From a virus (lineage: Duplodnaviria; Caudoviricetes): DNA of 59,971 nucleotides. The translations under genes and the position numbers were made by a program. Every line of letters starts with the position of its first letter. Positions within the stretch are counted from its first letter, which is position 1. The stretch covers positions 1 to 59,971 of IMG/VR virus record IMGVR_UViG_3300048556_000258. One strand, written 5' to 3'. The notes beneath the pieces are model-generated. The model was given only the letters and a program-made list of their open reading frames with translations, did not search any database and had not been told where the DNA came from. This document shows, in pieces, positions 14,778-54,348 of the stretch.

Positions 14778-15209
14778 CCCTTCTCTGTATTTGTTTACTC
14801 TATCGTATGTTAGTAACTCTTTACGAGCTCTCTGTGCATAAGAACAGTGTATCCACCCTGTGTTACCGCCTGTGTAGCACTCGAGTATCAGCTGGTCGAA
14901 AACAAGGTTGTCTCGTATCCACTGAGCTAAAAGATAGTTATCTACATTAGCTACTTCAAAGTCGGCTGCTTGACCTTTGCAGTGTTGTGAGTTCTTGGAG
15001 CTACCAATCGCTATTGAGAGTTCTGGACAACGGTACCCACTTGATACAATAAAGCTACCAAACTCATTACGAATTGGTTGTAAAATGTTTTCTGCTAATA
15101 GCTTTAGATTTGTGATAGCTTCGGCGTCAGGTACATTTTTTATGCCCCTACGTTCGGCTGTCTGGCTTTTTGTTAACTCGGCCAGAGTAAAGTTTTGACT
15201 TAATTGCAT
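14766..15209 (-). CDS. Peptidase M15A (D-Ala-D-Ala carboxypeptidase-type) endolysin
   Basis: LSQNFTLAEL...SSGYRC...SQHCKGQAADF...WIHCS. Confidence 0.9.
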   Translation of the reverse strand: MQLSQNFTLAELTKSQTAERRGIKNVPDAEAITNLKLLAENILQPIRNEFGSFIVSSGYRCPELSIAIGSSKNSQHCKGQAADFEVANVDNYLLAQWIRDNLVFDQLILECYTGGNTGWIHCSYAQRARKELLTYDRVNKYREGLIK

Positions 15210-18200
15210 TATCTATTCCTTAAAGAGTTAGCTACATTTAAAATGTTCAAGGTATATTGATTAGGGTTTTGATCAAAAACAGTTTGAGGTGTTACAGGAA
15301 GTAAAGGCTTAATAGGAGGTGTTACAGGTTGATATTGAAAATTATCATTACCATTACCATTACCATCTATGCTAGTATCTTTTTGATTATAACCTGTTGT
15401 AGTCGTTACCCCTAACTTATTTCCAATCATAGCGGCCAAACTAACAATACCGGTTGGAAGACCCAATCCTGCGGAACCTCCGGGACCTGTTACACTTGTA
15501 ATGTTACCTAGAGCATCTTTACTAAAGCTAGGTTGTACGCCTGCTTTTAAAGATTGTCTAGCATGTTTATTCATTTTGTTTTTTAAACCAAAAATATCGT
15601 AAGGAACATTTTTTACAGGAGCGTAGGTTACAGACCCTTGCATATTTTCTAAACCCGATACACCTTTAGATAAGCCCCCCATCACATCCGCCATAGCTGC
15701 GATGCTGTCATCTAAGCCTATATTAGTAGAACCTACGCTAGAAGAAGGACCATAGCCCCCAATTCCACCAATCCCAGTCATTCCTGTAGGGGATGAATCA
15801 GCCATTGCGTCAGATATACTACCACTATACCCTGTGTCACCGCCAGAACTTGGACTTTCAGTGCCCGCTCCGCTTGGATCAGCTTCATTAGACCCGTCAT
15901 CTCCTGGACCACCTGGACCATAGAAACTTGGTATACCCATAGGTCCGGGTTTTCCAGAACCTCCAAGCAGCTGCAATATACCGCCTTCTTGTGGTGTAAT
16001 ATACGCAAGCATATGAGGCTGACCTTTAATATCTATTTCTCTTGGGGGCACTGCACCACCCTCCGCCATAGTAGCTGTGGGCGGTATCATGCTTGAGACA
16101 ATATCTGTTGGAAACAATGAAGCATATTTAGTTCTATCTGTGGGCGCGGAGGTGGCGGAGGAGCCACCACCTCCCGCGGAAGCGGTGTTCAATCCGCTCA
16201 AAAATGGTTGACTTGAAGTTACTTGGGTGGTGGGAAAACCCTCTTGTACCCTCGGCTCAACCGAACTCTGATCTCCTATAGTTTGATCCTCAGCCGTAGG
16301 ATCATATTCTTCTGTTTCAATAGCTCTAATTCCAGATGGCATAGCTCTTATAAAAGTTTGTCTTCCACCTGTTACAAAGAACCCTGCTTCTGTAAATAAT
16401 TGTTTTAATCTTTTTGAGAGTTTTAATTTCTCTGGTTCTGTTTTTGCTTTTTTAAGAAGCGTAGCTAATAATCTAGGATTCTCCATGACTTCTGTCATTA
16501 CATCTGTTTTCATACTAGCAGGTATATCTTCGAATATTCTTCTCAAAGCTTTAGAACCAGCACCAGCTGCAACTAACTGACCCGCCCCTGTTTGGCCTGG
16601 AATTAATCCTTGCATTCTTGTACCAATAGCTGATCCAGTAACTCTTAAATAAAAGTCTATTATAGGACCTGCTCTCTCTACCGTTTCTAAAGTTCCAGCC
16701 ACTTCCGAAGCCTCTAACTTAATCATCTCAGTCAATAATTTTTTAAAGCTGTTTGCCTCAGATTTTTTTATCACATTATTTGTTAACATGTGATCCATGA
16801 TAGAAGTATCACCTAATGAATTAGGGATTTTAGTATATAAAGTTTGATAAACTTCTCTTGGGCTAAAGCTTTCGCTTGTCTTGCCACCTTTAGTTAAAGC
16901 CCACTCTAATATACTAGACTTTAACCCAGCTAACGCCTCTTCATTACCTTTTGCAGGCTTAACCAAAGAGTTAAGAGATTTTATAGGAAACTTGGAATTA
17001 AAAGCTTGTGACACAGCTGCAGTAGGATTGTCTTGCTTTGTTAAATTTCTGTATGTGATTTGATTTTTTATATTCTTTTGAATGTTCTTATCTTTAGTAA
17101 CCCAGCCTCTTAAAAGATTATTAGCAGTTACAGTATTCTCTAAGTCTGATTTCAAAGTAGGAAAAGCCTCTAAGAGCTCTTCGTTTTTATTCATCCAATC
17201 TTGAAGTTTCTTTTGATTTAAAATGACTTCTCCGTCGGGTGTTTCTGTAAAGACTTCTGATCTAGCGTTTCTTAGTATGGAATCTAAAGTGCCATTGATT
17301 GTGGATATTGTTTCCTCAGCTCCTTCAATGCCTTGCTCTTTCGCAAAGTTACCTATATCTTCTATTTGTTTAATTCTTAAATAACTTACATCTGCATCGG
17401 CAGTCATTAGATTTTTGTGTAGTAACTCGGGAGATTGTCTTTGAGCCCCTGTCTTAGATTTAGCTAAAACATTACCCGCAAAGGCTCTTGTATAAACGTC
17501 ATTTAAGGCTTTGGAATAAGATCTTGCAATATCTAAAGCTTGGTTTACTCCTTCGGGCGCGTTTTCTAGGTCATCTAAAATTGCCTCTGCGATCCCGTAC
17601 ATAAAGCTAGATCCATTATCATCTCCCGCTGCAGCAAGTTTTCTGCCATTAGCCAAAGCTATGCTTCTCATGTCTCTTAATTCAGTTACAGTTAAAGGTT
17701 TAAGCTCCTCTTCTCCGCCAGCTACAGTAGTAGAGGATTGTTCTACTTTTCTTTTTCGATAAGTATTAACTAATTCCATAGCATCTTTGTGACGAGCTCT
17801 TTGATTGTTCAAAAGTCTAGTGCGTTCTTTCATAGCATCTCTTGTTTGACCTTTGAAAGCATCTCCAAAACCTTGAGGTGGGTTAGATCTAATCCTTTCT
17901 AAAAGAGTTGTTAACTGACCTGCATCTAAACTCTCTAAATCACCAAAATCTAAATCTTCTCTGGCTTGATCAACGACATTTAAAACTAGATTGTCTGTTC
18001 GTCTAGGCTGAGTACCTTTTGCTTTGATAGATTCTATAATTTTATCAAATTCTGCAACACGGTTAGAGGTAGCTCCTGGAGTAACATCTTCTAAGCCAAG
18101 TTCAATTCTTTTTCTTTCCACAAAATTTTGTATGTATTTAAGACCGGCAGTATCTCTTATATAATCAGCGGCCTCTTTTGTATCAGGTATTCTGCTATCA

Positions 18201-19891
18201 AAATAACTTATAAATCTAGGAGTATCGGTTGGATTGCCTTGAGTATTAACAAAAGATGTAATCTCTACATTAGCAATGTCTCTATAAAGTCTTTTTTCTT
18301 CATCTCTAGCTTTGTTTAGCTGGTTTCCTGTTAGTTCAAACAAAGATCGGCTTAATTCTTTATTATTCTTTGGGTCTTCACCTTTTAATTTAGATCTAGC
18401 TTCTAATAATTTTTCAGTGCTATTAATCAACTTTTGTGAGAGATATTGATTAAAACGTCCTTCTTGTATTTTAGCCGCAGCTTTTATGAGTTCAGGGTTA
18501 CCTGTTCTACTTAACGCAAAAACAACTTTTCTTATAGCTTGGTTGGCAGCTTTATTTTTCTCTCTAGCTTGTTTAGCTAAACCTTCTGTAGACTGTGCAA
18601 TAGAGTTTTCTATTGCCATCAAAGTTGTGTTACCTGTCTTTTGAGCTGCAGTTAAATCTAAATCACCTACAAGATCTACAACTTCTTTTGAGTTTAAAGC
18701 TTCTATTAAGCCATCAACATCTTCACCTTGTGTTTCCAATATTTCAAGGATACGTCTTGCGCCAGAAAGCTGACGATTTTCTCCAAAACCTCGTGCAGCA
18801 GATTGAAAGCTTTCTTTAAAAAAGTTTTTATACCCGCCTGCTTCCTTTATAGTAGCTTTTACTTCAGGAATATATTTTAAGAGTTGTGTGAAGCCTATTT
18901 GAGGTAGTATGCCTCCTGAGACTTCTGATATGAAACGTGTTCCTGCCCCACCTGGATCGGCTGTCTCCGCTAAATAAGCTCCTGTGCCTGAACCTAACAC
19001 GCTTGTTAATTCTGCGGCTCCCATAGTTTTAGGTCTTTTACTAAATTCTGTTCCAATCTTACCTAAAAGTTGTTCGGCTGCTCTAGAGATTCTAGCTGCT
19101 TTAGGACCTTTACCTGTTTTTAAGGCTTTTGCTATCACGGCATCACTAAAACCTTTTACACCTTCAGGAGATATTTTTTGAGGTTGAGGACCTTTAGCTA
19201 GTAAATCATCTAAGTTATCTAAATAAGTGGCAGCTCCCATACTAATATTTTTTGGAACTAAAAAAGGCATAGGTAGCCAAGCTAAACCACCTCCTACAGT
19301 CTTACCTGATTCGTAGGCCGCGGACTGTGAGGGTGTAACCGCTTTCTCCGGTCCTAGAAGTAAGTCAGTAAACTCATCGCCGACTCGATACCCTTTAAAA
19401 GCCCCGATCAGTCCTGTTATAACAGGAACACCGTACTTTACCCCAATAGTCAAAGGCGATGTAGGTGGTATCATAGAGGTTGCTTTTGCACCAAGCTTAA
19501 CTCCTGCGTAACCTCCTGCCGCGCTAGGAGCCATTTTTGTTAACTCTCTTGTTAAACCTTCAAAGAAACCCACATCTTTTAAATTAGTAAACTGATCTAG
19601 AATGTCTTTATCAGTCATGGACCTCTCAGATGGGTCTAAACTCTTGGTATCAGGAGAGAAGTCAAATAAAGGAGCTGTGCCATCTCTTAATTGCTTGTAG
19701 TTAAAAAGATTAGGAAAATCTAAAGATAGTTCTTCAGCTACGTTTTCCGCAATAGCACTTTCAGCTTTATCGGCACCGTATGTCTTAGTAAGAAAATCAG
19801 TTTCTCCTTTTTCAAAAGAAACAATAGGGACCGTAGTAAAAGTACCTTCACCTGTAGGTATATCTATAACTTCATTGTTTTCTTCAGCCAT
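15209..19891 (-). CDS. Large internal virion/ejection protein, 1560 aa
   Basis: Last of four large genes after the tail genes; helical with Gly/Ala-rich hydrophobic segments; C-terminal MAEGG + HMLAYITP module. Confidence 0.7.
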   Translation of the reverse strand: MAEENNEVIDIPTGEGTFTTVPIVSFEKGETDFLTKTYGADKAESAIAENVAEELSLDFPNLFNYKQLRDGTAPLFDFSPDTKSLDPSERSMTDKDILDQFTNLKDVGFFEGLTRELTKMAPSAAGGYAGVKLGAKATSMIPPTSPLTIGVKYGVPVITGLIGAFKGYRVGDEFTDLLLGPEKAVTPSQSAAYESGKTVGGGLAWLPMPFLVPKNISMGAATYLDNLDDLLAKGPQPQKISPEGVKGFSDAVIAKALKTGKGPKAARISRAAEQLLGKIGTEFSKRPKTMGAAELTSVLGSGTGAYLAETADPGGAGTRFISEVSGGILPQIGFTQLLKYIPEVKATIKEAGGYKNFFKESFQSAARGFGENRQLSGARRILEILETQGEDVDGLIEALNSKEVVDLVGDLDLTAAQKTGNTTLMAIENSIAQSTEGLAKQAREKNKAANQAIRKVVFALSRTGNPELIKAAAKIQEGRFNQYLSQKLINSTEKLLEARSKLKGEDPKNNKELSRSLFELTGNQLNKARDEEKRLYRDIANVEITSFVNTQGNPTDTPRFISYFDSRIPDTKEAADYIRDTAGLKYIQNFVERKRIELGLEDVTPGATSNRVAEFDKIIESIKAKGTQPRRTDNLVLNVVDQAREDLDFGDLESLDAGQLTTLLERIRSNPPQGFGDAFKGQTRDAMKERTRLLNNQRARHKDAMELVNTYRKRKVEQSSTTVAGGEEELKPLTVTELRDMRSIALANGRKLAAAGDDNGSSFMYGIAEAILDDLENAPEGVNQALDIARSYSKALNDVYTRAFAGNVLAKSKTGAQRQSPELLHKNLMTADADVSYLRIKQIEDIGNFAKEQGIEGAEETISTINGTLDSILRNARSEVFTETPDGEVILNQKKLQDWMNKNEELLEAFPTLKSDLENTVTANNLLRGWVTKDKNIQKNIKNQITYRNLTKQDNPTAAVSQAFNSKFPIKSLNSLVKPAKGNEEALAGLKSSILEWALTKGGKTSESFSPREVYQTLYTKIPNSLGDTSIMDHMLTNNVIKKSEANSFKKLLTEMIKLEASEVAGTLETVERAGPIIDFYLRVTGSAIGTRMQGLIPGQTGAGQLVAAGAGSKALRRIFEDIPASMKTDVMTEVMENPRLLATLLKKAKTEPEKLKLSKRLKQLFTEAGFFVTGGRQTFIRAMPSGIRAIETEEYDPTAEDQTIGDQSSVEPRVQEGFPTTQVTSSQPFLSGLNTASAGGGGSSATSAPTDRTKYASLFPTDIVSSMIPPTATMAEGGAVPPREIDIKGQPHMLAYITPQEGGILQLLGGSGKPGPMGIPSFYGPGGPGDDGSNEADPSGAGTESPSSGGDTGYSGSISDAMADSSPTGMTGIGGIGGYGPSSSVGSTNIGLDDSIAAMADVMGGLSKGVSGLENMQGSVTYAPVKNVPYDIFGLKNKMNKHARQSLKAGVQPSFSKDALGNITSVTGPGGSAGLGLPTGIVSLAAMIGNKLGVTTTTGYNQKDTSIDGNGNGNDNFQYQPVTPPIKPLLPVTPQTVFDQNPNQYTLNILNVANSLRNR

Positions 19892-19894
19892 TAA

Positions 19895-22720
19895 TTATTC
19901 CTTACGTCTTTTGAAGACATTTTTAAAGACCTTATTTGCGTCAGCTCCCGAGCCAGTTTCTCCAAACCCACCAAATTTTTTGTAACTATTGATGGCGGTT
20001 TCGTATTCATTAATGAGACCACTTGTGAGTGTGAGGGCTTTTCTTGCTTTATCCAAACTTACATCTCTGTATTTCTTTGGATTATCAATTATATCTTGAA
20101 GTTCTTCTTTTGTCTTTTGCATAACATTTCTAGTCACTTCAAGTTGTGCCAAAGCATCTGAATCTGTTCTAAAACCACTAGGCCTAACTAATTCTTTCTG
20201 TAGTCTTGCTAAACTCTGTACGTCCAGTCTGTCGTTTGTAGCTTCTCTTACAAATCTCTCTGTTGAGTTAGCCAAAGCATTTAGCATTTTTCTACCAGCA
20301 GATGTTTCTTTAAACACATCTCCCTTACCAATTCCAACTTCAGAAGCTTGACCAGCTAAGAACCTCATGCCTGATTTTAAGGACGATACGAAACCTGTTG
20401 CATCGGTCAAATCTACGTTTGGATCAATTATCTTAGTTACAGCTGCATTACCCTCTTCTTCGCTAATAGGACCAAATGCTTCCCTTTCTGCTTTACTTAA
20501 GTTTAACTTACTCAAAGGTATATTTGGTATAGTCAATCCTTTTTGCAGTCGTTGTTTTAGGACATCCTGTAGATACGGGGGCAATTCTTTTTCGGTTGTT
20601 TCACCTTTAATATCAGTGGTCTTTGCGACATAGTTCTGTATCGCTGTTTCAAACTGGGGATCATTTGCACCATTTGCATAGTCTGTAAATCTCTTAGAAT
20701 CTGTTACAATATTTAAAGTTCTACCCTCAAGGCCTGTCCCAAAAACCTCTAACCGAGCTTTGTGCTTTTTAAGAACAAGTTCTTTTTCTTTTAGTTCTTG
20801 ATTAACGACATTGTTAGTTCGAGTAATTTGATTCATCTCACTCTTAATTTGATTAGATTCTTTTCTATACTGAACTAATTTATTTAATTCTTTATTTTTG
20901 AAAGCTAAGACATTAACATCATTTTCGGCTCTCTTTTCTGCAGAGAACTTTTTAATTTGTGTTTCGGCAATCTTTACTTCGTTAAGTTCCTTTTCAATCA
21001 AAGCTATCTTTTGTTGATCTCTTTCTCCTTCAGCTTTCTTTAACTCATAGTCTCTTAGACCCTCTAAAGTTTTTCTAGCTTCAGTAACTTTATCTAAATC
21101 TAACTCGGCTATAGCTTGTTGGTTCTCGGCTCTTCTTTGCGCAACCAAATTGCTTTCTCTTACTTTGTCAAACTCTAGCCTTTTATTTTTTTGAGCTATG
21201 TTATTTTGATTAATTAACTTATCTGTATTGTTTTTTTCAGTAGAAATTAATTGTTTTGTAGCATTATCTTTATCTGTTATCTTTTCATTAGACTCAATAT
21301 CTTTTATCTTTCTTTCCATAGAAGCAATGTTATTTATATTAGCAACATCTTTTCTACCTGTTATTTCAGTGTTAATTTTTTCTAAATCATTTTCTTGTTT
21401 TATGTCAATTTGATTAAGGTCAATCGCCTCTTGAACTTTTTTAAGTTGTTCTTGAATATCACCCTTTTCTTTTTCTAAAGTAATATCATAGCCCGATTGT
21501 AATTTTTTGTTCACTTCATCTAATTTTGTCTGTAAAGCAAACTTATTTTTTTGCATAGACTGATCGTGTGCTCTGCTTGATACTCCCTCAGCTTTTTTAA
21601 AAGCAAGATCTTTAGATTGTTTAATTAAGTCATAGCTAGACTTTGTTGCTATCTGTTGTAAATTTGCTACGTTTTTTAATCTCGCAGTCTCTAAGCCAAG
21701 AGCTCCTTGTAAGGCAGCAGTCTTTGCTGCTGTATCAGCCGCTGCAGCTTCTTTTCTTGAAGCAGCTGTTCTTGCCGCTATAGTAGGTAATAGTTTTGTT
21801 TGTTGTGTGGCCATAGCCAAACGCTCTGCAGCACTCATACCTTCTTTTTCACCCTGCATAGGAGATGCAAAAGCTAAAGCTGTGTTAGCTATGTCAAACA
21901 AAATATCTGATTGAAGCGCTTCTTTTCTTTCTTCAGCAGATTTAGTAGGCATGAAAGCTTGAAAGGTGGGTAAAAGAGCCTCTGCGGTCTCACCTACCTT
22001 TTGTTGATAATCAAAATCAAAATTTTTTGGCGAACCACCCGCTTGCATATACTGAACAGGACCACCTTGCTCAAACACAGGAACTGGATCTTCATCACCT
22101 CGGCGGCGGACTTCGCCGCCTAAGTTAAAATTTACGGGTGGCTCGTTACCAACCCCCATATTCCCGTTAGCTGCCATTGACATAATGCCTTCCCCCATGT
22201 CGCCTTCGACTGGAGTGTTCATCTGCTCTTGGGCCATTGGTCCTATGCCTTGATCAACTAATGCTAGTTCAACCACTGGAGTAACCAAAGCCAAAACACT
22301 TTCTGGTGTTTGACCCGCGTCCTCTGGTCCAACTATGCTTGCTAAATCTGACCTTCTCTCTTCAGCACTTTTGTTCTCACCTGAAACACTGTTCATCATC
22401 TCTTCAAAACTTCCGGCAGCCTCTGGGTCAGAAAACCCTGCCGCTTCAGCGCCTTCTATCATTTGACCTACAGTATTTGGGTCTATCATTTCAGCTCCCT
22501 GTTGTGCCATCATTTCAGGAGAAGGAGATCCCATTGCAGGGGCTGTGGCCATAATACCCTCAGACATCATCATTGGATCACCGCCTTCTGCCATATAGCC
22601 CATGTTATTTCTTACATTTTCAGGCAAATTAGGTAAGCCCTGATTTCCTGCTGGTATAGGCTTCAACCCTGCGGCTCCACCATTTTGAAACATCTGCCGT
22701 TCCATTACGCTTCTATTCAT
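19895..22720 (-). CDS. Internal virion/ejection protein, coiled-coil, 941 aa
   Basis: Position; long K/E/Q coiled coil; five xxGG motifs in the N-terminal quarter. Confidence 0.7.
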   Translation of the reverse strand: MNRSVMERQMFQNGGAAGLKPIPAGNQGLPNLPENVRNNMGYMAEGGDPMMMSEGIMATAPAMGSPSPEMMAQQGAEMIDPNTVGQMIEGAEAAGFSDPEAAGSFEEMMNSVSGENKSAEERRSDLASIVGPEDAGQTPESVLALVTPVVELALVDQGIGPMAQEQMNTPVEGDMGEGIMSMAANGNMGVGNEPPVNFNLGGEVRRRGDEDPVPVFEQGGPVQYMQAGGSPKNFDFDYQQKVGETAEALLPTFQAFMPTKSAEERKEALQSDILFDIANTALAFASPMQGEKEGMSAAERLAMATQQTKLLPTIAARTAASRKEAAAADTAAKTAALQGALGLETARLKNVANLQQIATKSSYDLIKQSKDLAFKKAEGVSSRAHDQSMQKNKFALQTKLDEVNKKLQSGYDITLEKEKGDIQEQLKKVQEAIDLNQIDIKQENDLEKINTEITGRKDVANINNIASMERKIKDIESNEKITDKDNATKQLISTEKNNTDKLINQNNIAQKNKRLEFDKVRESNLVAQRRAENQQAIAELDLDKVTEARKTLEGLRDYELKKAEGERDQQKIALIEKELNEVKIAETQIKKFSAEKRAENDVNVLAFKNKELNKLVQYRKESNQIKSEMNQITRTNNVVNQELKEKELVLKKHKARLEVFGTGLEGRTLNIVTDSKRFTDYANGANDPQFETAIQNYVAKTTDIKGETTEKELPPYLQDVLKQRLQKGLTIPNIPLSKLNLSKAEREAFGPISEEEGNAAVTKIIDPNVDLTDATGFVSSLKSGMRFLAGQASEVGIGKGDVFKETSAGRKMLNALANSTERFVREATNDRLDVQSLARLQKELVRPSGFRTDSDALAQLEVTRNVMQKTKEELQDIIDNPKKYRDVSLDKARKALTLTSGLINEYETAINSYKKFGGFGETGSGADANKVFKNVFKRRKE

Positions 22721-23670
22721 TAACCGAATAACCCCGCTTTAGCTGCTCCAGCACCTGCTGACAATCCAGCAATACCTAAACCTAGATATTGTTGAAAAGG
22801 TGACACACTAGGTGACGTGGATTGTGTTATAGTTTGTTGTGTCGTAGGTGTCTTACTGTAAACGTCAGATAAGAAACCTAATCTTTGATAAGGCTCATAC
22901 ATTTGTGACAAATCACTTTGTCTTTGTGCTTCTAGTTTAGCCTGATCTTGTGCTTGAAGGAGGGACCCAATCTTGAAAGCACCCTCAACATCTCTCTGTC
23001 CTAATCCCTGTACAGTCTCGCCAAGAGCCGCTTGCCTTAGTCCTAACTGTCCTCTCTCTCCTGCTAGTCCTGCCTGCTGAGAAGCTAACCCTGCAATACC
23101 TTGACCTAACTGAGTTTGTCTTCCTAGCTCACGCTCCGCAGCTTGTTGAGCTTGCATAAAGTTTTGTGCCTGCGCTTGTGCCAGAGCTTGTGATCTGTTT
23201 CTGTCTATCTCACTTTGAGCAACCTGAGACCTTGACCCACCAAAAGCACCTTGACCGACGGCGCCTGCTCTAGTTCCTTGAAGTTGTATATCATAAGCTC
23301 GGTTAATTTCATCTGCGACAGCTTGTTGATAAGGATTCATATATCTTTCAGTCATTTCCTGTGTAACAGGTCCTGCGCCAGCTCTCAAAGCAGCTTCTAC
23401 ACCACCAAGTGTTTGTCCTGCGCCAGTTAACTGCTGTCCTGCCTGACCTAAGGCCTGACCACCTGCGGTAATATACGGCATAAAAGATCCAAGGCCAGCT
23501 TCAGCTTGTTTCCTTGCAGCTTCTTGTAGACCTGTTAACTCCGCAACCTGTTGAGGTGGCAAAGTCATGCCTTGATCGGCTAGTTCCTTTGCAGACTTTA
23601 AAAGACCAATTCTATAGGCTTCTATCTCAGGAGATTCCCCTACCTGTTGTATGACGGTTTCTGTTGCCAT
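22720..23670 (-). CDS. Internal virion (DNA transfer/pilot-like) protein
   Basis: Q/A/G-rich; YMNPYQQAV, GAFGGSR motifs; C-terminal GLGIAGLSAGAG. Confidence 0.7.
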   Translation of the reverse strand: MATETVIQQVGESPEIEAYRIGLLKSAKELADQGMTLPPQQVAELTGLQEAARKQAEAGLGSFMPYITAGGQALGQAGQQLTGAGQTLGGVEAALRAGAGPVTQEMTERYMNPYQQAVADEINRAYDIQLQGTRAGAVGQGAFGGSRSQVAQSEIDRNRSQALAQAQAQNFMQAQQAAERELGRQTQLGQGIAGLASQQAGLAGERGQLGLRQAALGETVQGLGQRDVEGAFKIGSLLQAQDQAKLEAQRQSDLSQMYEPYQRLGFLSDVYSKTPTTQQTITQSTSPSVSPFQQYLGLGIAGLSAGAGAAKAGLFG

Positions 23671-25226
23671 TATGCCATCGCCTTTCCACGTTGTTCTAGA
23701 TTACGCATGACGTTATACATATTACTTATACCTTTGTTCATGTCACCACCACCTAGACCTTTTACAGCATCGGTAGTCATAACGAACTCTCCGGGCATTA
23801 ACATAGCTCTCACGCTGTCTTTGTTTGGGATACCCTCATTAGGCATAATACCCCCTACACGTCTTGGAAATATCTCACCGCCCTCGGCCGCAGCTTGGAA
23901 AGGTGTCTGAGAATAAAGATAAGGGTTGTACTCAAAGCCATAGCTCGTGGGCCGTGAGACAGGGCCCGTAGATCTTTCTACAGCTAAGTCTTTTATGTCA
24001 TAAGTGTCAGGGCTTTCTTTATAAACGTCTAATCCTGTCCTGACAGGACCTGTATCTTCTTCTTCGGGCACGTCAAACATACCACCAGCTGCGCCAGCTG
24101 CAGTAAGTAACGCGGCACTCGGACCGTATTTTCTAAGAAAGCTAGGACTTTGCTTGGCAGCTTTTTCTGCTGCGTCTAAATATAAGGCACTATTTTTACT
24201 AACTTTGCTTAAATCTATGTTTGGATTTTCTGCTTTTAATATGTCGGCGGCAGTAACATCATCAGGTCCAAAGAGAAAATCACCGGCTTTGCTGCCATAT
24301 TCTTTTAAAGTATCAAACATGCTAGTAGGTTTTGGAGGTAAAGTTGTTTGCGTTATAGGTTTCATACTAGAATCTAACGGTATAGCTTCACCACTTGGAC
24401 GGGTCATATCTATGAAAGCGGGTTTTTCTACACCGGAAGTGCTAAGACTTGCTTTTTGTATACCATCTGGAGAAACAGTTGTCTCACCTTCAAACAAACC
24501 TCTAAGACTAGGCTGTGTTGTGCTTTGTAGTGGATCAAAATTACCTTGAAAAGCTGCTTTTACACTTGAAGTACCTGCACCGACATCCGCGGCTATGTTA
24601 TCCATAAAACCGCCCTTACCAGAAAGTCCTGCAGTTACAGCACCTGTGGCACCTCCCATAAGAGCAGATTTAAAGGCGTCTTGTACGCTACCACCTTGAA
24701 CTAAAGTTCCGATACCTGCGCCTAAGGCGCCTGACATAACGGTACCTAATCCGGGGGCAAAGTAATTAATTGCCATAGGTATAATCAAAGGAGCGGCCTT
24801 CTTTAAAGCTTTACCTACACCCTTAGCTATCTTACTAACAGATTTAAAAATCTTTTTGAAGAAAAACTCCGGTAAACCTGTTGTAGGGTTCAAGCTGTTT
24901 TTGCTCTCACCAACAACATATCTTTCTGGGTCTTCTACACCTAATTCTTTTAAATGCTTAAATATACTTTCTTTTAAAGCAGGGTTCTTTTCAATCAAGG
25001 CCCGTGGGACGATGAGCTCGCCTGTTTCAACGTGGGCCACGGTGTCATCCCCGTAACGACCGAAGTTCGCCATCTTTTTTCCAACATCCGAGAACTGAGC
25101 AATACCGTTCGTGCCAAACTGCTCTCGAAGCTCTTCGGCTTCCAGCTGTTCAATCTGCTCATCCGTCATTACAAAATCTGCAATACCGCCTGCAGGTATG
25201 GTTTCTTGTTTAAGCGCTTGATCCAT
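23670..25226 (-). CDS. Internal virion protein with two DT/DS-xx-A...GE domains
   Basis: GDDTVAHVETGELIVP...NPTTGLPEF; Gly-zipper segment; AAEGG...DSVRAMLMPGEFVMT. Confidence 0.7.
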   Translation of the reverse strand: MDQALKQETIPAGGIADFVMTDEQIEQLEAEELREQFGTNGIAQFSDVGKKMANFGRYGDDTVAHVETGELIVPRALIEKNPALKESIFKHLKELGVEDPERYVVGESKNSLNPTTGLPEFFFKKIFKSVSKIAKGVGKALKKAAPLIIPMAINYFAPGLGTVMSGALGAGIGTLVQGGSVQDAFKSALMGGATGAVTAGLSGKGGFMDNIAADVGAGTSSVKAAFQGNFDPLQSTTQPSLRGLFEGETTVSPDGIQKASLSTSGVEKPAFIDMTRPSGEAIPLDSSMKPITQTTLPPKPTSMFDTLKEYGSKAGDFLFGPDDVTAADILKAENPNIDLSKVSKNSALYLDAAEKAAKQSPSFLRKYGPSAALLTAAGAAGGMFDVPEEEDTGPVRTGLDVYKESPDTYDIKDLAVERSTGPVSRPTSYGFEYNPYLYSQTPFQAAAEGGEIFPRRVGGIMPNEGIPNKDSVRAMLMPGEFVMTTDAVKGLGGGDMNKGISNMYNVMRNLEQRGKAMA

Positions 25227-42379: not shown

Positions 42380-42754
42380 TTAAGTCCTTACTCTTGTTTG
42401 TTTACGCCTGTTTTCCATAACAACCCCACAACCTCTGGCAACCACGGTTCCTTTACCTGTTTTACCTTTGTAAGGTCTTTTAGCTTTAGTTGAAGGCACT
42501 TCTCCTCCAAAACTCATTTTTGTAACTTTTGCGGATTTAGTGTTTGCAACAAAAGTTTTACCTTTTGCCCCTTCTTTTTTCTTTTTTTTAGCGGTAGAAG
42601 CCCGTTGTGATTGAGATAAACTATTGGCCTTGGATCTAGGTAAGCATCTGTCGGGATTTTTTTTATCTTTGGAAGTACCGCACTTGCCTTTAATCTTACC
42701 ATCTGTGCCTATTCGTACCCAATCTTGTTTTACCCAATCTTTAAGAGCACCCAT
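42380..42754 (-). CDS. Small highly basic virion-region protein
   Basis: LKDWVKQDWV...KCG...RCLP; Lys-rich; MSFGGEV and ARGCG motifs. Confidence 0.7.
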   Translation of the reverse strand: MGALKDWVKQDWVRIGTDGKIKGKCGTSKDKKNPDRCLPRSKANSLSQSQRASTAKKKKKEGAKGKTFVANTKSAKVTKMSFGGEVPSTKAKRPYKGKTGKGTVVARGCGVVMENRRKQTRVRT

Positions 42755-42978
42755 TACTTTTTCCTTTTTGATCCTTTAGCGTAGTTAGGGTCTTTACAAT
42801 ACTTTGAAGCGGCCATGTTGGCGTAAGCACTCGGATATGTATCAAAAGTTCTTTTAGCCCATGCTTTACCCGCAGGACATATTTTACTACCTTTGCTCTT
42901 GGCAGCACCACCTTTTTTGAAATACGTTACAGATAATTTAGAGGGTTTTGGCCCGGTTCTTACTCTACTAGTGTTCAT
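42754..42978 (-). CDS. Small basic protein (start MNTSRV)
   Basis: TAATG overlap with the upstream stop at 42978; FKKGG, ICPAGKAWAK...YPSAYAN. Confidence 0.7.
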   Translation of the reverse strand: MNTSRVRTGPKPSKLSVTYFKKGGAAKSKGSKICPAGKAWAKRTFDTYPSAYANMAASKYCKDPNYAKGSKRKK

Positions 42979-43172: not shown

Positions 43173-43456
43173 TAGCACTTCCACCTTCTTCTAGCTTGCC
43201 GTAAACGACTGTTAGGATTCTTTGCAGCTTTAGGAAACTTTTTCATTTGACCCGCACTTCTGGCACAATATGATTTTCTTCTTTTAGCGTCCTTACTACC
43301 CTTCTTCACCTTACCCGTTACAGCGGTCTTTAAATTACTTCCAGGGTTATCTCTCTTATACCTAGCAACACCCGCTTTAGTCATCCCCGCTCCAGATTTA
43401 GTGGAGCGGAAATATTTTTTTGTTTTAGGCGGTTGTTTATCTGCTTTTCTGGGCAT
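43172..43456 (-). CDS. Small basic protein (DUF6321-like)
   Basis: GAGMTKAGVARY...NPGSNLK...RRKSYCARSAG...SRLRQARRRWKC. Confidence 0.75.
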   Translation of the reverse strand: MPRKADKQPPKTKKYFRSTKSGAGMTKAGVARYKRDNPGSNLKTAVTGKVKKGSKDAKRRKSYCARSAGQMKKFPKAAKNPNSRLRQARRRWKC

Positions 43457-45946: not shown

Positions 45947-45973
45947 TTATTTTACTCCAATAATGGGGCCATC

Positions 45974-46462: not shown

Positions 46463-46467
46463 TTATT

Positions 46468-47367: not shown

Positions 47368-47376
47368 ATCTACCTC

Positions 47377-47796
47377 TTAATAATGTAAAATGTCTTCAGG
47401 GTCCATAATTTTTGCTAAAATCTCGTCATCATTTAAAATTCTGACCTCTCCGCCATCTATTTTAAAACGAGACCCCGCATATCGGGCAAACATCACCCAA
47501 TCTTTCTCCACGCACCACGGTCCTGCTGGAAATTTCTCTGTATCCTTGTAAGCTAAAGGTCCTGTCTTTAAAACATAACCAACTTGCGTAGAAACTTGAC
47601 CTTCTTCTACAATTTTATCCGGTAAAAAAATACCCCCTTCTGTCTTACCTTTACCTCTGTAAGGTAAAATAAGTATTCTCCAACCCGTTGGTTGGGGCAT
47701 TCTGTCTATTAAGCTTTGTTCAATTAAATTAGGGTCTAAAACTCTATCTTTTGGGTCTACATAAGCCCCATTTAGTTCTGTTGCTGATGCTTCCAT
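47377..47796 (-). CDS. groES: Co-chaperonin GroES
   Basis: PTGWRILI...KTEGGIFLP...GYVLKTGP...DWVMFARYAG...RILNDDEILA. Confidence 0.9.
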   Translation of the reverse strand: MEASATELNGAYVDPKDRVLDPNLIEQSLIDRMPQPTGWRILILPYRGKGKTEGGIFLPDKIVEEGQVSTQVGYVLKTGPLAYKDTEKFPAGPWCVEKDWVMFARYAGSRFKIDGGEVRILNDDEILAKIMDPEDILHY

Positions 47797-47994: not shown

Positions 47995-48056
47995 TTCTAT
48001 AAAAACCTAATATTTTCTTATTCTGTCGTATATAATCTTATATATTGCAGCAAATG

Positions 48057-49060: not shown

Positions 49061-49062
49061 TT

Positions 49063-49257
49063 TTACATTAAATCCTTATAATAGTCAGAATTTGGAGCAA
49101 AAACTTCTCCACCATCCGCCATTTTCACAGGCTTGACTTTGTCTCCGTGACCCTCTCTTATTAAAAACTGCTCGAAGCTCATAGAATCAGAGGCAGGACC
49201 ATCAAAAAATTCTTTTCTTAACTCCTTCTCACTTCTTTTATCACCTGATTTAGCCAC
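49063..49257 (-). CDS. Small protein carrying MADGG tag
   Basis: 64 aa directly after portal; VKMADGGEV. Confidence 0.7.
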   Translation of the reverse strand: MAKSGDKRSEKELRKEFFDGPASDSMSFEQFLIREGHGDKVKPVKMADGGEVFAPNSDYYKDLM

Positions 49258-51673
49258 CTTGACCTCCTTGGTTGTTTTGTTGTTTTAGTAACTCACGTTC
49301 CATAGACGAATTAATCCTAGCTTGAGCTATACTCTCCGAACTCTGTATTCTCTTGTTAAACTGATCGTCTCTCTGCTGAACTTTCTTCTCTTCAAGACCT
49401 AGTTTAGCTCTATCTACCTGAGCGTCATTCTCTTCAGCCTGAGCCTTAACCTGTAACTCTTTCTCTTTCAACTGTACTAATGGATCAGGTCCCTGACCGC
49501 TTAGTTGGCCACTTAGAGCTTTCAGTTGTGACATACCTTCCGCAACATACTGAGCGGTCTTAGCTTCCATATCAATCATCTGCTCTTCTGATACGGCCTG
49601 TCCACCACTGGTTTGGATTAAGTCAACCGCAGCTCTCTCGCGAGCTCCAATCTTCACATGTTCCATTATATGTTTTTGAAGGGCTACCGCCATTTGTGGA
49701 GATTGAGCGACTAGAGGTGTGGATCCAAAAACCATGTGCGCCATTATATGCGCCTCGTGATCCTGCCCTTCAAAAGCTACTAATTTTATCTGATCCAAAA
49801 CATCTATGTTCTCTTGAGCTGGATCCTTTGGTATAGCCTCTGGCTCCGGTGTACGCTTCAAGATTCTGTCTATATCCCTTACGCCCAGCGCCTCGTACAT
49901 GTCTCTAAAAATCTCATACATGTTGTGCATGTCAGGAGCTGCTGTAGCTAACTGCATCTTAGTCTGAGCTAAAGATATGCGCTGGGCCTGACTGAAAACA
50001 TTCGGATTGGATACAGGTAATACATCTACCCTGTTATCAAAATCCTGCCTTCTAATACTGCTATCAACACCTGTTATACTATAAGGATATTCGTCAGGTA
50101 AAAACTCTGACATAACCTTAGATAACAACTTAAACTCAATCTTCATTGCATAATGTAAACGCTTGTGAACAGCAGACATGACCCGTGAGCCCTGTTCCAA
50201 CATCGCTATAGTTGTCCCAACAGCCGCACCTTGATTACCGTCGCCAACCTTTAAATCCGTAATCGTAGCAAATCGCTGTCCCGCATCAACCACAAAACCC
50301 AATAGACTCATTAAAGTCTGGTCAGGACCCTTAAAGGGTAAAGACATCAAACTCGCTTTTATATCACCACCCGGAGCATCTACATCTCTAAACTCTCCCG
50401 GTTGCAAGGGCTCGTCATCATCCCTGATCCGTAGGCCGCGGGCCTTGAAGCCTGCTGGTAAGTTCGACAACGTACCTGCATCAATCAACTGCCTTAATGC
50501 AGCAGTCGCGGTTCGCGATAAACCGCCAATAGTATGAATAAGTCCTAGTCCATAAAAACCAAATCCTGGAAGAAACTTGTAATGTACAAAATATTGTATC
50601 TTCGCTTTCTTCTCGTCATCTTCTTTGTAATTCCTGCGGATCGATAGTATCTGTCCATTATCCTGTGAAATAGTAACAATATAAGGAACTTTTATGCCTG
50701 TCGGCTCACCGTCCTCGTCTGTCTCTTCATAACCCTCAAGATCTAAATCAACATGACATTCTAATAAGGTACAGTCATAATCAATCTGTGATGGATACAT
50801 ACCATCAATTCTCTCAATCTCATCCGTTAAACTACCTGATTCGCTTTGGGCAGGTACCACAGGTATATCCCTATAAAATCCAGAAACTTGACGCTTTCTC
50901 AAATCATTTAAACTTAATTTTAAAACCTGTGTGATATTAGGACAAGTTTCCAGATCTGTAGTGTTGTACGGTACAATCAAATTCTCAGCGGGAACAAATT
51001 TACTGACAGCCCGCTCCAAATTCTCATCATAGTAAACCTTCTTGAAAGTACTACCCGCTAACGGTAAGTAAAATAACATCTGATCTAATTCAGGAGTATA
51101 CTCTTCCATAACACAGGTTATGTAATAATTCATAAACTCCTTTACTCGTTGAGCTTGATCCTCTTTTGCAGGAGTGCTCGATCCAAGCACAGTAGTTCGC
51201 ACGGGGCCAGTTGGGGGCAACAGCTCATTGAAGGCTTGGGCTTGGAACTGCGTCGCCGATTCCGCCAAAAGCGGGTGAGTAACCCCACTCGCACCTCTGA
51301 ATGGTTGTGATCTCTCTTCGTAGCTAAACCCAAGTAATTCCAAACCATTGGCGAAGGCATCTTCCCACTCCTGTCTACCACTCTTGTTCTCATCAAACTC
51401 ACCTGTAAGCTCACTCGCAATCCTGCCAAGTAAACCATCCGGCATCTCTTCAGCTAGGTTAGCATAGAAGTCTTCGGTAGTGCCGCGTTGATCCCGTGGC
51501 TCAAAATCAACAACAACACTACCATCATCTTCTTCCATAATCTCTACGTCTTCTGGGATAGGTCCCATGTCAAGACTATCTGGCATCTCTATTTCTACTT
51601 CAGCAGCTAACTCTTCTTCGTCCATCTGAGATGGGACACCCTCCATCATGCTGCCTATCGGTTCTCTTGCCAT
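49250..51673 (-). CDS. Portal protein
   Basis: 807 aa; FYANLAE...PFRGASGVTHPLLAE...LPLAGSTFKKVYYD...LIDAGTLSNLP; C-terminal coiled-coil barrel. Confidence 0.88.
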   Translation of the reverse strand: MAREPIGSMMEGVPSQMDEEELAAEVEIEMPDSLDMGPIPEDVEIMEEDDGSVVVDFEPRDQRGTTEDFYANLAEEMPDGLLGRIASELTGEFDENKSGRQEWEDAFANGLELLGFSYEERSQPFRGASGVTHPLLAESATQFQAQAFNELLPPTGPVRTTVLGSSTPAKEDQAQRVKEFMNYYITCVMEEYTPELDQMLFYLPLAGSTFKKVYYDENLERAVSKFVPAENLIVPYNTTDLETCPNITQVLKLSLNDLRKRQVSGFYRDIPVVPAQSESGSLTDEIERIDGMYPSQIDYDCTLLECHVDLDLEGYEETDEDGEPTGIKVPYIVTISQDNGQILSIRRNYKEDDEKKAKIQYFVHYKFLPGFGFYGLGLIHTIGGLSRTATAALRQLIDAGTLSNLPAGFKARGLRIRDDDEPLQPGEFRDVDAPGGDIKASLMSLPFKGPDQTLMSLLGFVVDAGQRFATITDLKVGDGNQGAAVGTTIAMLEQGSRVMSAVHKRLHYAMKIEFKLLSKVMSEFLPDEYPYSITGVDSSIRRQDFDNRVDVLPVSNPNVFSQAQRISLAQTKMQLATAAPDMHNMYEIFRDMYEALGVRDIDRILKRTPEPEAIPKDPAQENIDVLDQIKLVAFEGQDHEAHIMAHMVFGSTPLVAQSPQMAVALQKHIMEHVKIGARERAAVDLIQTSGGQAVSEEQMIDMEAKTAQYVAEGMSQLKALSGQLSGQGPDPLVQLKEKELQVKAQAEENDAQVDRAKLGLEEKKVQQRDDQFNKRIQSSESIAQARINSSMERELLKQQNNQGGQGG

Positions 51674-51692
51674 GTAATTCTCCTTTTAGGTA

Positions 51693-53291
51693 CTATACCA
51701 CAGATTGTATATAATATTCAATGCCCCGTGGGCCACGGTTCATGTTTACCGCTTTTTCCTTCAAACTTACTACGCCGCCATCCTCCATCATAAAGTCTGG
51801 ATCATCAAACTTTTTAGGATCTTTTTTAGCCGCAGGACTTTGCAAAACCTTAGTGCTTCCCTTTGGTCTGTCTAATAACATTACATAGGAAAGATTACCG
51901 GTATCTTCATACTTGTTGACGTATGGTATATGTGTAAACCCTTCATCAGCCAACTCTCTTGAAAGTTTTTGCATAGCTTTTCTTATATCGTTATCGGAAA
52001 CATTGGGGCTTTCAAAATATAAATCATCTTTTGAAAATTTGTTGTTACTTAATCGTCCTAATTGATTAGCTTTAAAAAGATCTAATTCTTCTTCAGTAAA
52101 AGGTTTTTTGGTTGCAGGGTTTAAAAAAGGTTTACTTAAATCTGCTTTTAAAGGCACAGAGCCCCCAAGAGTTTCTTTATTGTCGGGCTTTATATCTCTT
52201 TTTTGTATGTCTTTAAGTATTTCATCAGCACTTTTACCTTCATATCTCTTGTTAAGATCCGGCATTATACCATAGTTTTTTGTGAAAAAACGATCAGAGG
52301 CCGCCTTGGGTGTAGACCCTACATGTGGGCCTAGGTCTAAATAAGGTAATTTATTTAAATCAAACTCTGTAAATCCCGGATCCATAGTGAAATGATACAC
52401 AGGTGTATCTATCTTACCAAAAGCAACAGCCTCTTTCATACCTTTTCTTTGATCTCCAATACCTCGAGCACCGGGAACTTCAGTTATTTTAGCATCACCC
52501 ACTGCTGCCTGTATCACATCCTTATAATCCTTACCTCCCTGAACAATAACATTATCATAGCCCTCTAAAGTATTTCTGATCCTATTCATTTGAGAAGCAT
52601 CTTGCTTAAACAACTCTGCTTTCTTAGGACTCATCTTGTCATTGTAATTTTCTATAGGAGTGTCCGCTCTTATCAAACCATGCTTGGCAGACATTATCGC
52701 TACGTCAACATCCGAAGGGACACCCATTGATTTTAAACTTTGAAACACGGGACCCAGATAACGGTCAATGGCTTCTTTATCCCCAACATCAGGACATTTT
52801 GTGTCACTACAAGATAAAACTAAAAGACGACGTCCTGACTTGTTTTCAGAACTGAATAAGCTACCTGAACCTAAGTTCAAATCATCTGGGACAGCAGACA
52901 CGCCTGACGTATCACCTTCCATCTTCATAACGCTAGAATCCACATCAGGACCTCCAGCTACAGCTGTCTTGGGTCCCAAATAAGGTATAAAACCCTCTAA
53001 CCCCTTTTTAGCTGCTTTGGCCGCAGGACCCACAATAGGTAACATACTTGCAACACCTAAAGTCGCTAAACCAGTACCTTTAGCAGCCTCTACAAAATCA
53101 TCGCTTGAAATCATTTTACCGCTTTGAGACAAAACTTCCGGCAGCTCGTATGCCGCTATAGCTTCCCCCGTGCCGGGTAAAAAAGATAAAGCATCATACG
53201 CATCTTCTATGGAAGTACCTTTTTTGTCCTTAGCCTCTAAACGAGATAAAACATCTCTATAAGTTTTTTGAGCCTCAGCCATCTCTTCCAA
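51693..53291 (-). CDS. Modular effector-like protein: pre-toxin-like hairpin + DUF6884/YaaA-like + ART-PolyVal-like ADP-ribosyltransferase + MEDGG tag
   Basis: SFLPGTGEAIA...LGVASMLPIVG; LVLSCSDTK...A.DRY.G...IMSAKHGLI...IENYNDKM; PVYH...F.EFD...G.H.G...GFTHIPYVN..E...SYVML. Confidence 0.65.
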   Translation of the reverse strand: MEEMAEAQKTYRDVLSRLEAKDKKGTSIEDAYDALSFLPGTGEAIAAYELPEVLSQSGKMISSDDFVEAAKGTGLATLGVASMLPIVGPAAKAAKKGLEGFIPYLGPKTAVAGGPDVDSSVMKMEGDTSGVSAVPDDLNLGSGSLFSSENKSGRRLLVLSCSDTKCPDVGDKEAIDRYLGPVFQSLKSMGVPSDVDVAIMSAKHGLIRADTPIENYNDKMSPKKAELFKQDASQMNRIRNTLEGYDNVIVQGGKDYKDVIQAAVGDAKITEVPGARGIGDQRKGMKEAVAFGKIDTPVYHFTMDPGFTEFDLNKLPYLDLGPHVGSTPKAASDRFFTKNYGIMPDLNKRYEGKSADEILKDIQKRDIKPDNKETLGGSVPLKADLSKPFLNPATKKPFTEEELDLFKANQLGRLSNNKFSKDDLYFESPNVSDNDIRKAMQKLSRELADEGFTHIPYVNKYEDTGNLSYVMLLDRPKGSTKVLQSPAAKKDPKKFDDPDFMMEDGGVVSLKEKAVNMNRGPRGIEYYIQSVV

Positions 53292-54348
53292 GAACCTGTG
53301 CTAACTGGGCCATGAGCCGTGGGTCGCGGGATTGGGTTACACCACCTTGTTTCATGATGCGGTTCATTACCAACATGTTTCTGTCAGCAGGTATCTCCTG
53401 CATCTCAACTGTTGTCTTTTTCATTAAACTAGATACACCGCCACCGTCGGCGAAAAGTTTAGGTTCCTCTGAAATATTAAACACTCCTTGCATAGGGGAC
53501 CCTGCATTAGGGTCTGAAGGACCTTTAGCTAAAGCGGCCTGTATTCTAGCGTTCTCTTCTGGACTTTTTATATCTCGTTGTTGTTGCCTACCTAAAGCTT
53601 GCTCGTAAGTCATTTCAGGTGAAACGCCTAAAGTAGGTCTTGCACTTTGAAATTCAAGAGCAGGGTTTGACAAAGAATAAGTATCTGGTCCAAAGTTAGA
53701 TAAAAAAGGCAGTCTATTGAGCGTAAAGTCAGGCTGCGGTCTATCGTAATCTTGAGGTTTAGGAAAACCATTAGGAAATAAGTTAGTTTTAACGGGTCTT
53801 GCCATTGTATCTTTTATTTTCATAGGTCCAAAAACGCTTTGACCACCCGTGTCGACCCCACCTAAATTAAATCTTTCAGAGGCCATTTGATGAATTTCAT
53901 CAATAAAAGGATCTACTTGATTCTGGTCTATGACTTCACTCAAAAATTGACGATAAGAGTCTAAGGGTCCACTACCCCCATGAGAGCTTATCTGTCCTAG
54001 CATAGCTAATCCGCCTTCTCTCATATAAACTTTATCAGATTGAGGTGTACTTAATATTCCAGAAGGATCCGCCAATCCGCCTTCCGACTCGCTACCACCG
54101 AACTCTAAAAACTTTCTTCTTATTTCATCCATAGGTTCTGCAAATTCTTCAGGAGCAGTTGTCGTATCTTGGCCTAAGGAGTCTAACGCATAAGGATCCT
54201 CTTCTAACATCCTTATGATTTCATCAGGACCCATATCATCTATATTCTGGTTCTCCATCATATACTGGTCACCAAAATCTGTACTACTGTCAAAAATAGG
54301 AATGTCGTCTTTAGTTGCGTTGCGTACTACACTATCAGCCATGTTCAC
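53275..54348 (-). CDS. Low-complexity protein with multiple xxGG tags
   Basis: 357 aa, likely disordered; YMREGGL, FNLGG, FADGGGV, MKQGGV. Confidence 0.65.
   Translation of the reverse strand: MNMADSVVRNATKDDIPIFDSSTDFGDQYMMENQNIDDMGPDEIIRMLEEDPYALDSLGQDTTTAPEEFAEPMDEIRRKFLEFGGSESEGGLADPSGILSTPQSDKVYMREGGLAMLGQISSHGGSGPLDSYRQFLSEVIDQNQVDPFIDEIHQMASERFNLGGVDTGGQSVFGPMKIKDTMARPVKTNLFPNGFPKPQDYDRPQPDFTLNRLPFLSNFGPDTYSLSNPALEFQSARPTLGVSPEMTYEQALGRQQQRDIKSPEENARIQAALAKGPSDPNAGSPMQGVFNISEEPKLFADGGGVSSLMKKTTVEMQEIPADRNMLVMNRIMKQGGVTQSRDPRLMAQLAQVLGRDG

Follow-up and report, generated by a model that had tools for sequence, protein, structure and literature searches.

A short linear motif made up of M, F or Y, two variable residues, Gly-Gly, one variable residue and Val or Ile, with the anchor residue sometimes one position further upstream, recurs in the virion-region proteins encoded by a 59,971-nucleotide stretch of viral DNA (positions 1 to 59,971 of IMG/VR record IMGVR_UViG_3300048556_000258, the whole stretch hereafter referred to as the window), and is found where inserted modules and portal extensions meet the rest of the chain. 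Its features suggest a boundary between modules, or a processing mark, of a kind common to tail tape measure proteins, rather than a capsid address tag, and we tentatively read it as a junction or processing signal that would release ejectable modules. Judging from its terminase, which is 54-62% identical to those of Pelagibacter phages HTVC027P and HTVC023P, phage 023Pt_psg01 and phage DSL-LC04, the window is an HTVC023P-type marine podophage genome of ~60 kb, probably a whole one. A preliminary description of the window had listed recurring [M/F]xxGG strings in unrelated virion-region proteins and proposed that they load cargo into the capsid, mark it for processing or chain it for ejection. 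All 14 listed [M/F]xxGG strings were present in the genes named, and two sets of site coordinates, that of the 64-aa protein among them, agreed with the translation; AAEGGEI, listed for the protein of 518 amino acids (aa), was also present, but has neither M nor F and so lies outside the motif as it was then defined.

Conservation provides stronger evidence for the motif than enrichment counts. In orthologs from IMG/VR, approximately 13 sites were kept with varying x positions, and the GG pair was invariant next to variable x in six protein families (41/41, 12/12, 10/10, 46/46 and, twice, 16/16), which supports the proposal of a short linear signal and shows the motif to be real and conserved. 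The sites, and a conserved hairpin-like segment near one of them, are as follows.

22670..22690, minus strand: 941-aa protein, site 1, FQNGGAA (residues 11-17); F, GG and AA each in 16/16 orthologs, x varies.
22574..22594, minus strand: 941-aa protein, site 2, MAEGGDP (residues 43-49); Y in 9 and M in 7 of 16 orthologs, GG in 16/16.
22109..22129, minus strand: 941-aa protein, site 3, FNLGGEV (residues 198-204); F and GG in 15/15 orthologs reaching the column.
22055..22075, minus strand: 941-aa protein, site 4, FEQGGPV (residues 216-222); F and GG in 14/14 orthologs reaching the column, Pro after GG in 11.
22028..22048, minus strand: 941-aa protein, site 5, MQAGGSP (residues 225-231); weak, variable copy, in 3-4/16 orthologs only.
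16049..16069, minus strand: 1560-aa protein, MAEGGAV (residues 1275-1281); M..GG in 5/5 unique sequences (the window and 4 orthologs), with the hairpin-like PHMLAYITPQEGGIL downstream.
42497..42517, minus strand: 124-aa basic protein, MSFGGEV (residues 80-86); M in 12/12 and GG in 12/12, with 5 and 6 residue types at the two x positions.
42901..42921, minus strand: 92-aa basic protein, FKKGGAA (residues 38-44); F in 10/10 and GG in 10/10 orthologs.
49102..49122, minus strand: 64-aa protein encoded just after the portal, MADGGEV (residues 46-52); GG in 41/41, M in 36 and K in 5.
51768..51788, minus strand: 532-aa DUF6884 protein, C-terminal MEDGGVV (residues 502-508); GG in 46/46, V in 46/46, V/I in 46/46.
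54004..54024, minus strand: 357-aa protein, MREGGLA (residues 109-115); kept in 7-8/20 orthologs, those having the segment.
53851..53871, minus strand: 357-aa protein, FNLGGVD (residues 160-166); partly conserved, FNL kept and GG lost in some orthologs.
53434..53454, minus strand: 357-aa protein, FADGGGV (residues 299-305); F in 10 and Y in 10 of 20 orthologs, GG in register in 10/20, the rest reading YGGSPGI.
25179..25199, minus strand: 518-aa protein, N-terminal IPAGGIA (residues 10-16); P11, G13, G14, I15 and A16 invariant in 46 sequences.
25005..25052, minus strand: 518-aa protein, N-terminal hairpin-like GDDTVAHVETGELIVP; invariant in 46 sequences, with short strands and helices at modest predicted local distance difference test scores (pLDDT).

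In 28 of the 46 orthologs of the 532-aa protein, a constant Met lies one residue further upstream. A tblastn search of phages with the first 125 residues of the 518-aa protein gave no match. Six hits were found beyond those of the preliminary description: FVTGG (1560 aa), FSVGG (705 aa), FVGGG (629 aa), FIYGG and FFIGG (both 168 aa) and FGVGG (162 aa). The conservation checks cover the hits other than the two in tail fibres, FSVGG and FVGGG. GG is lost in orthologs for FVTGG and for both 168-aa hits, FGVGG sits in a wholly conserved fold or stretch, and in MKQGG, at position 332 of the 357-aa protein, GG is kept in only 15/20 orthologs. From these alignments, about five of the 20 hits were judged to be due to chance or to lie within a conserved fold. 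The terminase hits MRFRQGG of HTVC027P and 023Pt_psg01 were also rejected as chance occurrences, in a conserved region in which the window reads QGN.

Counts were based on 71 long, non-overlapping open reading frames (ORFs) chosen from the 146 listed. Among their 183 GG dipeptides, 20 formed [MF]xxGG, for an expectation of 11.4 (M and F together accounting for 6.2% of residues; binomial P = 0.010). Shuffling within proteins, a null that also breaks GG clustering, gave an expectation of 8.4 +/- 2.8, with 20 reached in 0/2000 shuffles. With GG fixed, the expectation rose to 15.9 +/- 3.7 and 20 was reached in 48/300 shuffles, which is not significant, although this null is flawed because shuffling generates additional GG pairs. 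The longer form [MF]xxGGx[VI] was observed eight times in the window, against 1.75 expected (0/300 shuffles reaching 8), and was similarly enriched in HTVC027P (5 versus 1.18 expected; 2/300 shuffles) and 023Pt_psg01 (7 versus 1.92; 1/300), but not in HTVC023P (1 versus 1.49; 236/300). Across five related genomes combined, [MFY]xxGGx[VI] was counted 32 times in the 63,605 residues of virion modules, compared with a single occurrence in the remaining 31,779. Taken per residue, this contrast was significant (Fisher P = 4.8e-5); taken per GG, it was not (P = 0.17), because replication proteins have few GG pairs. The restriction of the motif to internal, ejection and small basic virion proteins supports the preliminary description, in which no comparable copies had been noticed in capsid, portal or replication proteins. 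DSL-LC04 has the motif in matching protein classes, and Pam1, a more distant podophage, has 0 copies of [MFY]xxGGx[VI].

A profile of 75 non-redundant instances showed the anchor to be M (39), F (19) or Y (17), preceded by K, P or V and most often followed by A. The residue before GG was D or E, the first residue after it was variable (A 12, V 11, P 8, R 8, E 7) and the second was V (66) or I (9).

The motif travels with modules, as the preliminary description had suggested in proposing that effectors are added by appending a tag: additional modules in orthologs bring an additional copy, and enzyme domains are joined to portal homologs through the motif. Among orthologs of the 941-aa protein, 5/16 have a module directly after site 2 (FDPxNP...GIFEKP, in some cases longer), which is itself followed by a new M[EQ]EGG copy, and in 3/46 orthologs of the 532-aa protein, the motif is followed by an insert of ~110-120 aa with a second copy at its end. 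AlphaFold2 (AF2) modelled residues 1-270 of the 941-aa protein, which contain five motif copies, with a mean pLDDT of 43.5 and zero residues at ≥70, from a shallow alignment of 16 rows. The portal protein of the window has no copy, as originally noted, but fused portal homologs elsewhere do. Among 150 listed representatives of 5028 portal homologs, seven have a C-terminal extension of 282-455 aa, and in each of them Y/F-x-x-G-G separates the portal core from the extension, whereas a strict motif hit was found in 0/59 of the listed representatives with shorter tails (60-270 aa). The extensions contain Phage_lysozyme (three), a Pesticin-type lysozyme (one), Hydrolase_2 (one) or no Pfam domain (two). 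Portal homologs P0139, P0155, P0157, P0158 and P0241 have a lysozyme or cell-wall hydrolase domain fused C-terminally; such fusion is an unusual way of carrying a muralytic enzyme inside the head.

Copies of the motif also precede a GE(F/Y)V hairpin-helix element common to siphophage tape measure proteins, and in such composite elements the motif lies 5-25 residues upstream of the beta hairpin. Two elements of this kind were delimited in the window, in addition to the N-terminal segment listed above.

23673..23897, minus strand: C-terminal element of the 518-aa protein, comprising AAEGGEI, RRVGGIM, the hairpin DSVRAMLMPGEFV and two helices.
15974..16018, minus strand: variant hairpin element of the 1560-aa protein, PHMLAYITPQEGGIL; its pattern D.MLAHITPQE also follows FAMGG in a 759-aa protein of DSL-LC04, a similarity judged by eye.

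A profile built from six sequences of the 518-aa C-terminal type matched two tape measure proteins of known structure, Douge gp16 (8zdo_S, E 3.4e-15, two copies) and JBD30 gp46 at residues 1002-1058 (8rk3_A, E 0.0022). The tblastn search with this C-terminus retrieved 52 Mycobacterium phage records, in genes annotated as tape measure (E ~4e-3), and a protein of a T4-like cyanophage (Bellamy gp12). In Rosebush and Bellamy, the components of the element occur in the same order as at the end of the 518-aa protein, with lone copies (HFADGGEV, MMDGG, YAAGG) nearby. In the AF2 model of the 518-aa protein, which had an overall pLDDT of 44.6, the C-terminus was predicted with moderate confidence (pLDDT 57-77) to form strands at 471-475 and 480-484 and helices at 485-491 and 496-517. 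A "hook" shape is predicted for residues 1022-1066 of the JBD30 protein in PMC11445458, and the modelled hairpin and two helices of the 518-aa protein correspond to that description. By these profile matches, the 518-aa C-terminus, and this C-terminus only, belongs by sequence to the tape measure GG-GE(F/Y)V elements. A homolog search with it yielded 1637 proteins at E ≤0.001, the 120 listed being close marine relatives with uninformative names. The window element did not match TIGR01541, the lambda family model (no match at E up to 1), which covers gpH 472-813 (E 1.1e-134), or the Pfam model Tape_meas_lam_C. The latter spans gpH 627-701 only, and the GG-GEFV element of gpH, at 722-790, has no Pfam model.

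The closest known system is the C-terminal processing region of siphophage tape measure proteins, in which lambda gpH is converted to gpH* and gpHC, and T5 pb2 to pb2* and pb2C. There, as in the window, a long protein that leaves the particle before the DNA has, close to its end, a hydrophobic-x-x-G-G immediately followed by a GE(F/Y/H)-type hairpin; in the podophage of the window, by contrast, the motif is spread over at least seven proteins, mostly without the hairpin, and in the head rather than the tail. The cut of T5 pb2 after R1127 is the only mapped tape measure cut according to PMC10038345. The pb2 sequence runs ...FVPR up to the cut and AEGGMMYPGVSYQMGEHGTEVV... beyond it, so that the cut falls directly before AEGGMMYPG...GEHGTEVV. 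The R-A-x-G-G and GE(H/N)GxE element is kept in 4/4 divergent T5-like homologs. Lambda gpH loses ~14 kDa from its glycine-rich C-terminal region, at a site and by a catalyst described as unknown in PMC12617516 (2025). Its C-terminal layout is F733-ATGG, GGKYEPAGIVHRGEFVFTKEA..., Y778-ATGG and a terminal M842-RDGG, and a cut after F733 would, by calculation, release a fragment of 120 aa and 12.5 kDa, to be compared with the ~14 kDa reported in that text. We infer that the motif is the determinant of both the T5 pb2 and lambda gpH cuts.

We read the motif as a border mark between modules of proteins that are stored in the particle and exit via the portal or tail channel, and propose that it is a maturation processing site or adjoins one. 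Cleavage at or beside the motif, once assembly is complete, would detach small basic peptides, enzymes and other modules from their carriers and from each other and thereby allow them to be ejected. The cutting enzyme might be that of the host or a phage protein that has escaped recognition, or the downstream element might cleave itself. Two further features favour processing: wall-degrading enzymes attached at the portal's inner end must be released before they can act outside the particle, and the modules bracketed by the motif resemble the units of a polyprotein. Of the three functions proposed in the preliminary description, marking for processing fits best, with the T5 cut adjoining AEGG and the lambda fragment compatible with cleavage between F733 and ATGG, though no protease was found. 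The proposed capsid-loading address is unsupported, because the motif also sits in siphophage tape measure proteins, which belong to tails and not to capsids, and in cargo covalently fused to the portal, which needs no address.

Several observations weigh against cleavage at the motif. Scans for a protease recognised none: Pfam, run on 42 ORFs of the virion region, found the M15 endolysin only (the G2 and S74 autoprocessing domains of the tail fibres being found in separate scans), NCBIfam assigned 0 families to 10 proteins, and an Atlas search with the 210-aa and 162-aa head-module proteins returned nothing. That the proteins of the window are cut at all is itself something that we infer. The T5 cut is preceded by Arg, not by M, F or Y, and the window element profile does not match pb2 (E 2.3), so that it is the short motif that forms the link with T5. 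The same profile aligns weakly, at 6.8 bits, with lambda gpH 722-771, and the position of the lambda cut derives from gel mass only. Most copies of the motif lack the hairpin element, and, if the GE(F/Y)V element drives cutting, many copies might be left uncut. Pro follows GG in 8/75 instances, which would disfavour a cut directly after GG, and the segments after the motif are conserved in the 64-, 532- and 357-aa proteins, as expected for binding peptides. It would be a bolder and rather unlikely proposal that a single widespread processing reaction, catalysed by the GE(F/Y)V element itself or by a host enzyme, acts at hydrophobic-x-x-G-G on the tape measure and ejection proteins of tailed phages in general. 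Such a reaction would account for the cuts in T5 pb2 and in lambda gpH, where the site has been unknown since 1974, and would have been expanded in HTVC023P-type podophages into a polyprotein-like system in which portal and ejection proteins bring enzymes and basic peptides into the head before these are cut loose.

The main rival reading, to which we give somewhat less credence, is docking without cleavage, the leading idea of the preliminary description. The motif would then be a strand-turn peptide that adds onto a common receptor, either loading its carriers into the prohead or chaining them for ordered exit. Its hydrophobic anchors, six residues apart around a GG turn and often present in multiple copies in low-confidence segments, would suit such a peptide, as would the conserved flanks of the 64-, 532- and 357-aa families mentioned above, the placement of the motif before a beta hairpin in the composite elements and the 8-base overlap of the 64-aa gene with the end of the portal gene. 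The receptor, however, is a list of candidates (the portal or core, the scaffold, the capsid interior, and the hairpin element of the 518- and 1560-aa proteins), and docking leaves it unclear why the motif should occur in tail tape measure proteins, which never enter the capsid, or in cargo already fused to the portal, for which an address would be redundant; inserted modules would also need no copy of their own. Improbable, in our view, is a passive structural element, in which two hydrophobic anchors and a flexible hinge would act as a linker, or as a refolding nucleus, for proteins that pass unfolded through the channel, with no partner and no cut. The location of the motif at domain borders and in low-confidence stretches is consistent with a hinge, and the diversity of the phages and hosts in which it occurs is more easily reconciled with an intrinsic physical role than with a specific partner. 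A mere linker, however, would not keep an invariant GG and fixed hydrophobic residues over 41 and 46 sequences amid varying neighbours, and it is precisely at an element of this kind that T5 pb2 has its mapped cut.

Mimicry of the GroES mobile loop, by which virion proteins would bind the GroEL of the host, appears highly improbable. The GroES-like protein of the phage itself has the loop KTEGGIFLP, and some copies of the motif are similar, such as EEGGAILPL in an ortholog insert. In the motif, however, the residue after GG is usually polar or variable and only the second position is V or I, against three hydrophobic residues in the GroES loop; the loop of the phage protein, with K-T-E before GG, lacks the hydrophobic residue that the motif conserves at the third position upstream of GG, and the motif is also found in phages not known to carry GroES. 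There is as little reason to attribute the motif to the composition of glycine-rich virion proteins, which yield [MF]xxGG by chance. The non-significant results of the GG-fixed shuffling and of the per-GG contrast between virion and other proteins are compatible with such an origin, as are the approximately five of 20 hits that are unconserved or inside a conserved fold. Against it stand the enrichment of the longer motif in three of the four shuffle-tested genomes, the conservation of GG and anchors around variable x in six families and the presence of the motif between core and extension in 7/7 portal homologs with long extensions, and the conservation data already contradict a chance origin.

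Short linear signals are known on other internal proteins of phages, including the T4 capsid targeting sequence with its cleavage by gp21 and the head propeptides of phiKZ and SPN3US. All of these are N-terminal, the T4 sequence being a single stretch of ~10 residues, and their removal requires a phage prohead protease, which cuts after Glu (LxE or S/A/G-x-E). The motif resembles them as a short linear signal on unrelated internal or ejected proteins that, in those phages, is linked to maturation cleavage. For the SPN3US head-protein propeptides, the comparison draws on the abstract of PMC10052503. The copies in the window differ from the T4 capsid targeting sequence in being internal, multiple and C-terminal (positions 11 to 1275) and in having a different sequence, and we found no conserved Glu at a fixed distance in the 75 instances and no prohead protease in the Pfam scan of 42 ORFs. 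Adenovirus core proteins are matured by adenain at (M/L/I)XGG-X, with the hydrophobic residue at P4 and GG at P2-P1, and the polyproteins of African swine fever virus have GG-X sites. As at adenain sites, a hydrophobic residue precedes Gly-Gly on unrelated core proteins, including small basic DNA-associated ones; unlike at adenain sites, two residues rather than one separate it from GG, placing it three, sometimes four, positions before the first Gly. No clan CE protease was recognisable in the window by the same Pfam scan, and the adenovirus lineage is unrelated to phage. The address idea has its closest analogue in the cargo-loading peptides of encapsulins, short Gly-containing hydrophobic peptides on unrelated cargo that bind inside an HK97-fold shell. 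Those peptides are terminal and single, whereas the motif of the window is often internal, repeated and also present in tail proteins. A double-glycine leader of the type handled by C39 exporters, N-terminal and 15-30 residues long, was rejected: most copies are far from the N-terminus, and the Pfam scan found no peptidase or transporter of this kind.

No description of the motif was found in the literature, including PMC9599517 and PMC1796659, most subscription journals and supplements lying outside the coverage of this search. By analogy with the signals above, the motif would be of a known kind, that of short signals on internal phage proteins, in what appears to be a new form. If it marks processing or docking, it provides a simple sequence rule for the proteins that abundant marine podophages carry in the head and deliver to the cell, and would explain the gain of enzymes by fusion to portal or ejection proteins. 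It predicts a precise cleavage site in lambda gpH, between F733 and A734, and could help to annotate ejection proteins without family assignment in the genomes of uncultured phages.

Nearly all genes of the window are on the minus strand. The genes that provide the context of the motif, in order from the terminase, are as follows.

54350-55804: large terminase, PHROG match.
49250-51673, minus strand: portal, PHROG portal (E 1.6e-58), gene product without the motif.
47377-47796, minus strand: GroES-like protein, PHROG match (E 4e-16).
23670-25226, minus strand: 518-aa protein.
22720-23670: 316-aa protein, labelled DNA ejection protein by PHROG.
19895-22720, minus strand: 941-aa protein.
15209-19891, minus strand: 1560-aa protein.
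14766-15209, minus strand: M15 peptidase (E 4e-18), probably the endolysin, directly after the gene of the 1560-aa ejection protein.

The 518-, 316-, 941- and 1560-aa proteins occupy the usual podophage position of internal or ejection proteins. The major head protein was also identified by a PHROG match, and the Pfam matches in the window include SU10-type adaptors, a GP4-type fibre protein, the M15 peptidase and a holin with three transmembrane segments. A search of PDB sequences with the portal and the capsid protein gave no match. The C-terminus of the portal (49250-49300, minus strand) reads ...NNQGGQGG, and the 8-base overlap of its gene with that of the 64-aa protein suggests coupled translation.

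The interval between terminase and portal varies widely. In the window, it encodes the 357-aa protein and the 532-aa protein (51693-53291, minus strand), the latter with DUF6884 at residues 158-268 (E 5.4e-9). Relatives have pairs of 483 and 892 or of 615 and 751 aa, or a single protein, of 201 aa in HTVC023P and of 825 aa in DSL-LC04, the sole protein at this position in DSL-LC04 being annotated as PcfJ-like. Two tail fibre or spike proteins (30823-32940 and 33198-36767, both minus strand) have C-terminal self-cleaving chaperone domains, the domains found being Peptidase_G2 (E 9.7e-31) and Peptidase_S74 (E 8.8e-10). A 458-aa protein (27787-29163, minus strand), probably a glycine-rich fibre protein, contains 19.7% glycine and 22 GG pairs and has zero copies of the motif.

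The gene of the GroES-like co-chaperonin belongs to the head module, where it falls between the genes of the portal and of the putative scaffold, and its product has an N-terminal extension of 32 residues in addition to the mobile loop described above. GroES is among the 13 core genes of HTVC023P-type phages listed in PMC9599517. Small, very basic proteins, which may be DNA-associated internal peptides, are clustered after the head genes (43172-43456 and 42380-43032, both minus strand); one of them is a DUF6321 protein (E 3.1e-13), and in relatives some of the small basic proteins are arrays of K-K-M-x-K-G-G-x-V units spaced ~10 residues apart.

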